Part shown: positions 22,462 to 63,957 of the stretch, in pieces | Numbering within the stretch: position 1 is the first letter of the stretch | Layout: each line of letters starts with the position of its first letter | Assembly (NCBI RefSeq): GCF_035084215.1 | Contig: NC_090327.1 | Location: forward strand, 7,936,001 to 8,000,000 | DNA length: 64,000 nucleotides | Source: Heptranchias perlo | Lineage: Eukaryota | Reading direction: 5' to 3' | The notes under the pieces: model-generated | The model's database searches: none | What the model saw: the letters and a program-made list of their open reading frames with translations, nothing else | What the model was told of the DNA's origin: nothing | Translations under genes and position numbers: made by a program

Positions 22462-22636
22462 CTTTGTTCCTCCCCTTCACTAACGTCATGCAGTAAAACG
22501 TAATATTTCAGTGTATTTGGAATAAACCACTTTGGGTAGGCGTAGTCACTGCTATGTTGAATACGATGTTGCTCTTGTGACAACTTCAAAAACTGGTCCA
22601 CAGGATCAGGGTCTCTCGACGACACTACAAGCATGC
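22462..22636 (-). CDS. TRAPPC8: TRAPPC8 coding exon 4 (175 nt)
   Basis: ctttaag / (C)MLVVSSRDPDPVDQFLKLSQEQHRIQHSSDYAYPKWFIPNTLKYYVLLHDVSEGEEQ+AG / GTAAGG. Confidence 0.96.
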
Positions 22637-26425: not shown

Positions 26426-26515
26426 ATGCCAAATAGTGGTGTAGAAACTCGTGGTCTGATGGAGGCATGGATTGGAAGAAGCATTCCCTGTAGGCCTCAA
26501 ACCAGGGAGTGGTGG
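26426..26515 (-). CDS. TRAPPC8: TRAPPC8 coding exon 3 (90 nt)
   Basis: ctcttttag / (A)TTPWFEAYRECFFQSMPPSDHEFLHHYLA+T / GTATCCTTT. Confidence 0.96.
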
Positions 26516-35130: not shown

Positions 35131-36309
35131 ATCTATGGCCCCATGTTCTTGACCCAACTACTGAAAACCCTGTATTGGTCTCTATCTACCCATTCCCATC
35201 CTGTCATGTTGTTGTATGTCCATACATTCTATAGCACAGTAAGTTTACAAGCAAAGCGCATTATTGAACTGAACTTATATCAGGGCTCAAGTCTCAAAAC
35301 TATAAACATTAAACTGAATCAAGCACTGTGGGTTAAAAGGTAATGTACATGCTATCTCTCCTTGCAAGGCAGACCAGAACCGATCAGCTTGGCTTGGAAG
35401 ATAGCATCGTCTTCATTCACGGCTTCGGTGGGGGGGGGGGGGGGGGGGGCGGCGGGGAGAGGGGAGATTAGAAACAGAGGAGTACTTCTACTTAAGTACT
35501 CCACTATCTATATTAAAAAAAATCTTACCAATAATTCTGACCTTAAAGTCTAAATACCTGCCAGCACAGAGACAGAGCTTGACCACCCCGGTAGCTTGAC
35601 CACCCCAGTAACATTAAAGATAATTCCCACCCCCACACTATCACAGAGCAGCTCCACTGTAGATAACTAAATAGCAGGAATGACTACACCCTGGAGCCAT
35701 TTAAACCAGATCACTGTAGCATTTCACCCACAAAGTCAGGTGCCTCAAACTGGCTTGACGTTGTGTCCCCTCCCCCACTCTAATGATGTTAATAGCGCTC
35801 CTGAAATTGATCTCCCCATAGCAACCTAACGTGGGAGGGGGGATTCCACTGTGGTAGCAGGAAAATCGATATTTGAAACTTAACAATTTTTGTAAAAAAG
35901 ATAGTACTGTAAATAAAAATGTACTTCTAGACTTTTTGACCTTTAACCGGTCCCTGAAGTGTACATAGTCACTGCAGAGATCAAAAGTTACAACTTGTCT
36001 GCTTGCTTCAGTATAAATTATTTTCAACTTCAGAACACAAAAGGCTAAAAAGAAACAAATTCCCAGAGAAATCAATACTTTTACGTTTTGTGCATTTCAA
36101 TGTGCAAGAGAACTCTGACAGGTCCTATTATGTGAAAACTGCAATTATACTCATTTATGAATGCAAGCCAACTGATTGAAAGTATTATAGTATCGGGAAA
36201 AAAATGGTCATATAAAATGCAGAATATGTAGCGTTTACATAGTACAGCGTTTTATACAAAATTCTTTTTAAAAACCCAAGTCTCAAATTCATCTCCAGCA
36301 GCAAATGTA

Positions 36310-41160: not shown

Positions 41161-42031
41161 TATATATGAGCCACTATCCATATTTGTCGCAAAAGAACAA
41201 ACTTGAACTTTACATCAGTATCGGGTATACCACTCCAGGGACCATTAACAACAAATACGATAGATTAATTTGTTCAGATGCAGCTCAGATTACATCTAAC
41301 TTCACCAGTCCCTTCTAGCTTTCAATGGGCTAATTTTTAAAAATCAAAATATTCATTTTTTTTCTACAATTACGTTTTGCATTAAAGCAGTTAATCTCTA
41401 AATAAAATTGAGTAGTCCCTGTTTAAACATAAGTGGGAGCCTATTTTAAAATTTTTTTTTAAAAAAACCTTGAACAAGCTAATCTTAGACATAATGGGCT
41501 AAGATGTTAACAAGGAAAACACAAGTCAGCACAGTCAGATAGGTTATATAAAAAAAAACTAGTGCACACACATCTGGAAGGATGCAGCACAAGAACCAGA
41601 GGAACAAACAAATGTAGAAAAAAAACCAGAAGTCTGCTCTGACAAGGATCCGTTTCTGATTTTAAGTTATGGCGCACTGCATTAAAACTTAGCTTTTAAA
41701 AAGGACATTTCAAAATTACATTACTGCAGCTTTAAATAATAGGAATAGCTAAACCAGATACAAACTGAAATCAATTACTGAATTGGACTTGTCCAAATAT
41801 TCACTCAAAAATATTGTTTGCCTGGAGATGGTCTCTTTTTCTATCCCTAACTGCTCTGCCCTTTGCAGCCAATACCATGAGAACACAAACAGATAAAGAC
41901 CAAAAAAATCATTGATAATACTGAAGATTGAGAAATTCAGACAACCATAACGAGCGAGATAGTTCAAAAATAAAAACTGGGCAAGGGAGAAATGAAGTAA
42001 CTGCTAAGCCCACACCAACTTAAGAAAATAC

Positions 42032-42115
42032 CTGCATGGAACTTGGACGAACTCAGCTGCGTCAAAGTGTCTTTCCAATTATTGTACCATGGAACACTAG
42101 CTTTAACTGAGCGAT
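42032..42115 (-). CDS. TRAPPC8: Candidate alternative TRAPPC8 exon (84 nt, phase 1-1), similar to exon 3
   Basis: Pyrimidine-rich acceptor tgttctgttttccatcag, donor CAG/GTATTT; open in the TRAPPC8 frame: (D)RSVKASVPWYNNWKDTLTQLSSSKFHA. Confidence 0.6.
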
Positions 42116-42284
42116 CTGATGGAAAACAGAACATGATATTAATGACCCATCACTGAGTTAAAAATTTCTTGTTTCATGTATAGAAATGCCCAAAAGAAAA
42201 ATGGGCTTTCTAAAACAATATAGTGCTTTAAAAAAAGACTTGTAAAAGTATTTTCCACTCCCAAGTTCATTTACTCACAAAACA

Positions 42285-63762: not shown

Positions 63763-63957
63763 CGCTGATATTGAGATCATAATCTCCTGCTGTAATCACA
63801 TTAGCAACCAATCCTTCTGCAGGTTGACTGGCAGAAACCACCTCACTTAACAGCTTCCGAATGGCAGTCTGTTGTGGCGGTTGGGTAACAATGCTGGTAA
63901 CACTGATCCTCAGATTTTTAATAACATGGCTCTGGTTGTTAGGATCTCGCATATGAA
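63763..63957 (-). CDS. TRAPPC8: TRAPPC8 coding exon 2 (195 nt)
   Basis: tttttgtctag / (V)HMRDPNNQSHVIKNLRISVTSIVTQPPQQTAIRKLLSEVVSASQPAEGLVANVITAGDYDLNIS+G / GTAAGC. Confidence 0.97.

Follow-up and report, generated by a model that had tools for sequence, protein, structure and literature searches.

The window analysed here (the whole stretch of 64,000 nucleotides) carries coding exons 2, 3 and 4 of TRAPPC8 on its minus strand. Exon 2 (63763..63957, 195 nt) finishes in phase 1, with ...DLNIS as its last residues, and its 3' part codes for a predicted beta-hairpin within the GTPase-like domain. Exon 3 (26426..26515, 90 nt) encodes the TPWF helix followed by the conserved HEF..YLA motif, and exon 4 lies at 22462..22636 (175 nt). 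Coding exon 1 is located about 4 kb past the window edge, and a protein search of the genome recovered a single TRAPPC8 locus.

An 84-nt exon within intron 2

Between exons 2 and 3, at 42032..42115 of the same strand, lies an 84-nt cassette, hereafter exon X, which encodes 28 amino acids; the full peptide is DRSVKASVPWYNNWKDTLTQLSSSKFHA, and its first codon also uses the final base of exon 2. The acceptor side (42116..42144, minus strand) displays a branch-like cattaat at 42144-42138, a pyrimidine tract and a CAG acceptor, and the donor (42024..42031, minus strand; GTATTTTC) reads CAG/GTATTT, starting with GTAT as does the exon-3 donor. Phase 1 is found at the ends of exons 2, X and 3, exon X is free of stops in the TRAPPC8 frame and the frame stays open in each of the joins 2-3-4, 2-X-3-4, 2-X-4 and 2-4. 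The coordinates, length, branch-like motif, acceptor, donor, phase and stop-free frame of exon X had been pointed out in a sequence-only reading of the locus and were found again here, and its placement of the exon in unique, non-repeat sequence holds as well: a 401-nt stretch with exon X has a single match in the 3.25-Gb genome, which is itself, and the exon lies outside the self-repeats of the window. Repeats shared within the window occupy 22,914 of the 64,000 bases and show very high depth when contigs of public runs are mapped. The peptide can be divided into five residues without clear homology, an apparent copy of the exon-3 helix of 15-17 residues and a variable linker of seven residues.

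Splice sites alone are weak evidence, since a loose rule yields 11 frame-keeping candidates in the 37-kb intron, two of which correspond to exon X. Two more in-frame AG sites are present inside the exon (42101-42109, minus strand), 9 nt and 15 nt from its start. The first would give a 75-nt variant that passes the loose splice rule, the second is in register with the exon-3 acceptor, and neither is used by any of the TRAPPC8 models that we fetched. A second frame-keeping segment, 99 nt long (35558-35656, minus strand), shares the donor CAG/GTATTT and passes the loose pseudo-exon rule; no protein support was seen for it. A motif scan based on general-knowledge motif definitions detected no RBFOX or QKI sites within 300 nt of exon X, and the density of other splicing-factor motifs over the same distance looked like background. 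Consequently, we propose no splicing regulator for this exon.

Splicing and distribution of exon X

A 143-nt contig from one public run covers 42032-42116 with no differences in exon X. By-eye comparison of its loose ends matched 27 of 29 letters to the end of exon 2 and 26 of 29 to the start of exon 3. The five differences in these flanks are all synonymous, which indicates that the run comes from a related organism. As the contig spans two introns (21.6 and 15.5 kb) and joins the exons at the exact splice sites, it represents spliced RNA of the form 2-X-3; of the junctions that the sequence-only reading had suggested searching for, it contains 2-X and X-3. Junction support consists of this one contig, from one of six runs, of a related organism and of presumed RNA type, with flanks of 29-30 letters that are slightly shorter than the 31 letters required by the mapping tool. 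Under the contig filter applied, the other five runs gave no contig on exon X; in four runs mapped over the 19.9-kb X-3-4 stretch, repeats dominated and no exon joints were detected. All five sampled exon-X words occur in 18 of the 21 listed runs (seven organisms), one of which yielded the exon-X contig, and none of the 21 listed runs with exon-X words is flagged as RNA. Relative to the related organism, exon X differs at 0 of 84 positions and the flanks at 5 of 58 (Fisher p 0.01). Fewer nucleotide differences than in the flanks are typical of conserved alternative exons.

A total of 346 proteins, a redundant set of predicted models that is X-enriched by design, was gathered from cluster look-ups and from protein searches that used the shark frame (every one of the 27 hits being TRAPPC8), exon 2 (120 listed of 398 matches) and the squirrel exon-X region (120 listed of 174 matches). 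The order 2-X-3 is found in 160 of them, 2-3 in 154 and 2-X-4 in two; the rest comprise one protein in which X is followed by unrelated sequence, three with exon 2 joined to exon 4, seven other forms and 19 without an anchor. Exon 3 is kept in 160 of the 163 X-bearing models. A skipping form exists in 154 predicted models, the skipping junction itself being known from these models, and both forms occur in one shark species (1516 and 1488 aa). With canonical AG/GT sites, a frame-keeping length of 84 nt and inclusion junctions on both sides (one contig, related organism, one of six runs), exon X is almost certainly a real cassette exon.

The exon 2, X and 3 peptides of the window are identical to those of RefSeq XP_067834095.1 (isoform X1), the partner model without exon X being XP_067834100.1 (isoform X2); in X1 the same 28 residues stand at the junction of exons 2 and 3, so that the pair already represents this very exon. 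The exon had been described as hidden and possibly unannotated, which it is not: its 28-aa peptide is already part of predicted TRAPPC8 isoforms, in RefSeq and elsewhere, in many vertebrates. The long RefSeq isoforms are automatic models, with no function, tissue pattern or origin attached. X-less shark and ray TRAPPC8 models measure 1480-1489 aa, about 50 aa more than human (1435).

Exon X is widely distributed. Among fishes, it is present in sharks, rays, chimaera, coelacanth and gar, the five groups in which its conservation was to be looked for, and also in bowfin and several teleost groups. Caecilian, salamanders and frogs carry it, as do lizards, snakes, turtles, crocodilians and birds, and the mammals with exon X include echidna, marsupials, rodents, tree shrew, shrew, mole, hedgehog, bats, pangolins and reindeer. 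The peptide is always 28 aa long, D1, W10, Y11 and W14 are invariant in 60/60 distinct peptides, and the substitutions are conservative (K/R, D/E, V/I/L). Identity between shark and squirrel amounts to 18/28 residues in exon X, 52/64 in exon 2 and 25/30 in exon 3. Amino-acid conservation over 85 distinct triplets is 0.87 for exon-X residues 1-21 and 0.86 for the end of exon 2; the last seven residues of exon X are variable (0.54).

The annotation is patchy in mammals. Exon X does not occur in any of 30 named primate proteins, 28 of which cover the junction, and it is missing from the four human models examined of at least 10, NP_055754.2 and isoform X1 included. Nor does it occur in the models listed first for pig, sloth, anteater, elephant shrew, pika and fruit bats. 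The Myotis brandtii X1 model contains the exon. A Rhinolophus sinicus model contains it too, whereas the R. ferrumequinum X1 model does not, and because two species of one genus differ in this way, absence from models can reflect the tissues sequenced. Our guess from this patchiness is that inclusion is tissue-restricted. Human RNA has been deeply sampled, and loss or silencing of exon X in human is therefore likely. The reindeer peptide carries 7/28 changes relative to squirrel, two of which (R2W and K5E) affect sites that hardly vary elsewhere; selection on the exon is possibly relaxed in ruminants. Lamprey TRAPPC8 is represented by one model without exon X, a single model being no proof of absence.

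Relationship of exon X to exon 3

The best ungapped match of the exon-X profile in the whole of TRAPPC8 is to residues 113-132, with about twice the next score (40.6 versus 21.0 in shark, 50.7 versus 20.2 in human). The score observed against exons 2 and 3 was reached by none of 3000 column-shuffled profiles and by none of 3000 shuffled single peptides, and 0 of 200 column shuffles reached the X-profile score against the whole protein. An independent test used a profile of distant relatives, for which 1.84 billion proteins were searched, giving 147 representatives; 79 of these were anchored on the helix-HEF pattern, and removal of three vertebrate-like sequences left 76 distant TRAPPC8 relatives. 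Applied to the 58,095 stop-free 15-mers of the window, this profile scores exon 3 at 43.9 bits, exon X at 23.5 and the next candidate at 8.1. The hhalign probability of exon X is 95.7% against the distant-relative profile (E 8.5e-9) and 59% against vertebrate exon 3 alone. At three columns, exon X has the residues that are commonest in the distant relatives (Ser7, Trp14 and Thr17), the corresponding residues of shark exon 3 being Thr, Tyr and Cys.

The first five and last eight residues of exon X score negatively against the family profile, the last eight at -10.7 bits compared with 22.6 for exon 3. Exon X is without the HEF..YLA motif, and the part of exon 3 recognisable in it is the first 15-17 residues. 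Nucleotide likeness between X and exon 3 is not significant, 1541 of 2000 codon shuffles scoring as well. Traces that are only suggestive are the AG in register with the exon-3 acceptor 15 nt into X and the GCA-N/GTAT at both donors; these would be consistent with duplication of the entire exon, after which the copy acquired 15 nt at its start and dropped 21 internal nt.

Exon X and the adjacent exon 3 thus show significant homology at the protein level, equal phase and equal orientation, and X occupies the neighbouring intron. Two PW[FY]xx[WY] motifs in the first 330 residues were found in none of the 147 representatives, which are mostly distant relatives, and the lamprey model, a single-copy outgroup, has one such motif. 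As far as can be judged from sequence, exon X very probably arose by duplication of exon 3, the likely template, and with one lamprey model lacking X, the duplication would predate the split of the jawed vertebrates. The sequence-only reading had seen a diverged duplicate of exon 3; this stands in that the protein-level homology exceeds chance, with the qualification that the copy is partial and extends over the first 15-17 residues only.

Structural setting and possible role of the insert

The N-terminal domain of TRAPPC8 has been described as GTPase-like (PMC10152722). Our model of a mammal-like TRAPPC8 without X (pLDDT 78.8) agrees with this description, as it matches yeast Trs85 (7kmt_B; Z 13.8, rmsd 4.6, 238 aligned) and then GTPases. 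Exon X inserts between the beta-hairpin and the TPWF helix. When marmot TRAPPC8 with X was modelled with AlphaFold2 (pLDDT 79.2), the exon-3 helix stayed in place (pLDDT 86) and an extra X helix appeared at 131-140 (pLDDT 58), after a stretch below 50. Confidence in the neighbouring hairpin fell from 81-87 without X to 52-55 with it. All distant rows of the AlphaFold2 alignment were assigned to exon 3, so the model is biased against a helix swap. Foldseek with the X-containing model returned no match at E 0.001, yeast Trs85 being at rank 11, and a sequence search of solved structures gave nothing for exon 2 and, for the full protein, only Drosophila residues beyond 374. The X helix is more amphipathic than that of exon 3 (hydrophobic moment 0.60-0.67 versus 0.39-0.53), and its net charge is 0.

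Hydrogen-deuterium exchange (HDX) of human TRAPPIII showed less exchange on liposomes at TRAPPC8 residues 5-21, 115-126 and 376-421, and three further TRAPPC8 peptides were also protected; the authors interpret protection as membrane or subunit contacts and single out 376-421 as a membrane helix (bioRxiv 10.1101/2021.06.01.446621). Human 115-126 spans the 117/118 insertion point and corresponds to the duplicated segment. The explanation that we favour, with some reserve, is that of an optional, duplicate-born exon adding an amphipathic helix that tunes TRAPPIII on membranes. A tandem duplication of exon 3 before the jawed vertebrates split would have left an optional exon X between exons 2 and 3. 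The core fold would remain intact, with the exon-3 helix keeping its slot and the X helix outside, so that the leg of TRAPPIII on the membrane side would gain, through X, a second amphipathic helix exposed at the surface. Where X is included, this helix could adjust the membrane engagement of TRAPPIII and Rab1 activation. Judging from the predicted models, an added surface helix is somewhat more probable than a helix swap. The membrane-tuning role is proposed because the insertion point falls inside the liposome-protected peptide 115-126, and it is tentative.

It is rather unlikely that the X helix instead takes the slot after the beta-hairpin and expels the exon-3 helix, in the manner of metavinculin, which would alter one face of the GTPase-like domain. 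X directly follows exon 2, hairpin confidence falls when X is present, and P9, W10, Y11 and W14, which are invariant in X, coincide with the conserved residues of the family helix, a pattern that continued packing against the domain would produce; metavinculin offers a precedent (PMC2873289). However, the best AlphaFold2 model keeps the exon-3 helix in place, a short loop links this helix with the HEF motif and with the core strand that follows, and at positions occupied by Phe and Leu/Phe in the family, the residues of X (Leu, Met/Thr) are smaller.

That X is retained mainly because of a role at the RNA level, or represents a minor splice product encoding a tolerated, functionless loop, is improbable. 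Such an origin of its conservation would suit the 0/84 differences against 5/58 in the flanks, the many mammalian models without X, the diverged reindeer peptide and the low model confidence, but the fixed length and frame, the conservative changes and a conservation of residues 1-21 equal to that of the exon-2 end argue against it. Still less credible is a de novo exon that resembles exon 3 by chance or convergence: the lack of nucleotide similarity, the negative scores of both ends and the 59% hhalign value would be expected of it, whereas the equal phase, the adjacent position, the shuffle tests and the three residues shared with the distant relatives where shark exon 3 differs would not.

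The sequence-only reading had left open whether X is a 28-aa cassette or a replacement for exon 3, and the former is borne out by 160 of the 163 X-bearing models and by the sole junction contig, both of the form 2-X-3. Mutual exclusion of X and exon 3 is hardly tenable: the 2-X-4 frame is open and two of the 163 models, from horn shark and a bat 'hypothetical' protein, join the exons in this way, but three models join 2 to 4 directly, so that such joins arise in predictions anyway, and 2-X-4 would remove His-Glu and Cys, which are near-invariant in the family, and scores 451.6 bits against Pfam PF12739, compared with 493.7 bits when exon 3 is kept. Unlike the members of a mutually exclusive pair, the two exons are included together, and X is without the HEF..YLA half of the structural unit.

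An optional exon born by duplication has several counterparts. Helix H2d-H2a of COE/EBF, as described in PMC2394523, goes back to a tandem duplication, in vertebrates, of an exon that encodes a helix, and a single transcript contains both copies; its inclusion became mandatory and its duplication predates the cyclostome split, whereas X is an optional, partial copy that one lamprey model and many models of mammals lack. The 68-residue metavinculin insert is likewise optional and contains a helix that could replace a neighbouring helix of the same domain; there, replacement is proven by crystal structures (PMC2873289), whereas in X it is putative and the predicted model shows none. Tandem duplicated exon substitutions and homologous mutually exclusive exons, as presented in PMC9741552 and PMC8373072, are also ancient, adjacent homologues of the same phase, but they replace one another, whereas X is added to exon 3 and is without its second half.

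A literature search by titles and abstracts, with most subscription journals, splicing databases and some supplements outside its scope, found no description of exon X. TRAPPC8 is absent from the main text of PMC9741552, the terms 'isoform' and 'splic' are absent from PMC8204870, and 'isoform' is absent from the HDX preprint (bioRxiv 10.1101/2021.06.01.446621) and occurs once in PMC10152722, for TRAPPC6. Exon X is not listed in the supplements of PMC5989265 (12 of 15 files), PMC5703972 (six files), PMC11653684 and PMC5577920 (one file each); Dataset S9 of PMC5989265 lists a different, 59-nt cassette exon of mouse Trappc8, near the 3' end of the gene. The origin of exon X is apparently undescribed, the exon itself is already in automatic annotations, and duplicate-born cassettes are a well-known class of event.

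Flies and mammalian cell lines require TRAPPC8, and membrane contact is attributed to the N-terminal legs of TRAPPIII (PMC10152722). With an insert that is optional, conserved and located where liposomes give protection, the role of the poorly resolved GTPase-like domain can readily be tested. It would be a bold speculation, and on present evidence an unlikely one, that jawed vertebrates possess a second, tissue-regulated form of the Rab1 activator TRAPPIII in which the duplicated helix swaps into the GTPase-like domain of TRAPPC8 or adds a membrane contact, changing the place or speed of Rab1 activation, and that this switch, conserved for over 400 million years, was then lost in humans and several other mammalian lines. 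If exon X is truly lost in humans and used in rodents, birds and fish, it would constitute a difference between model animals and humans in a core trafficking and autophagy complex.
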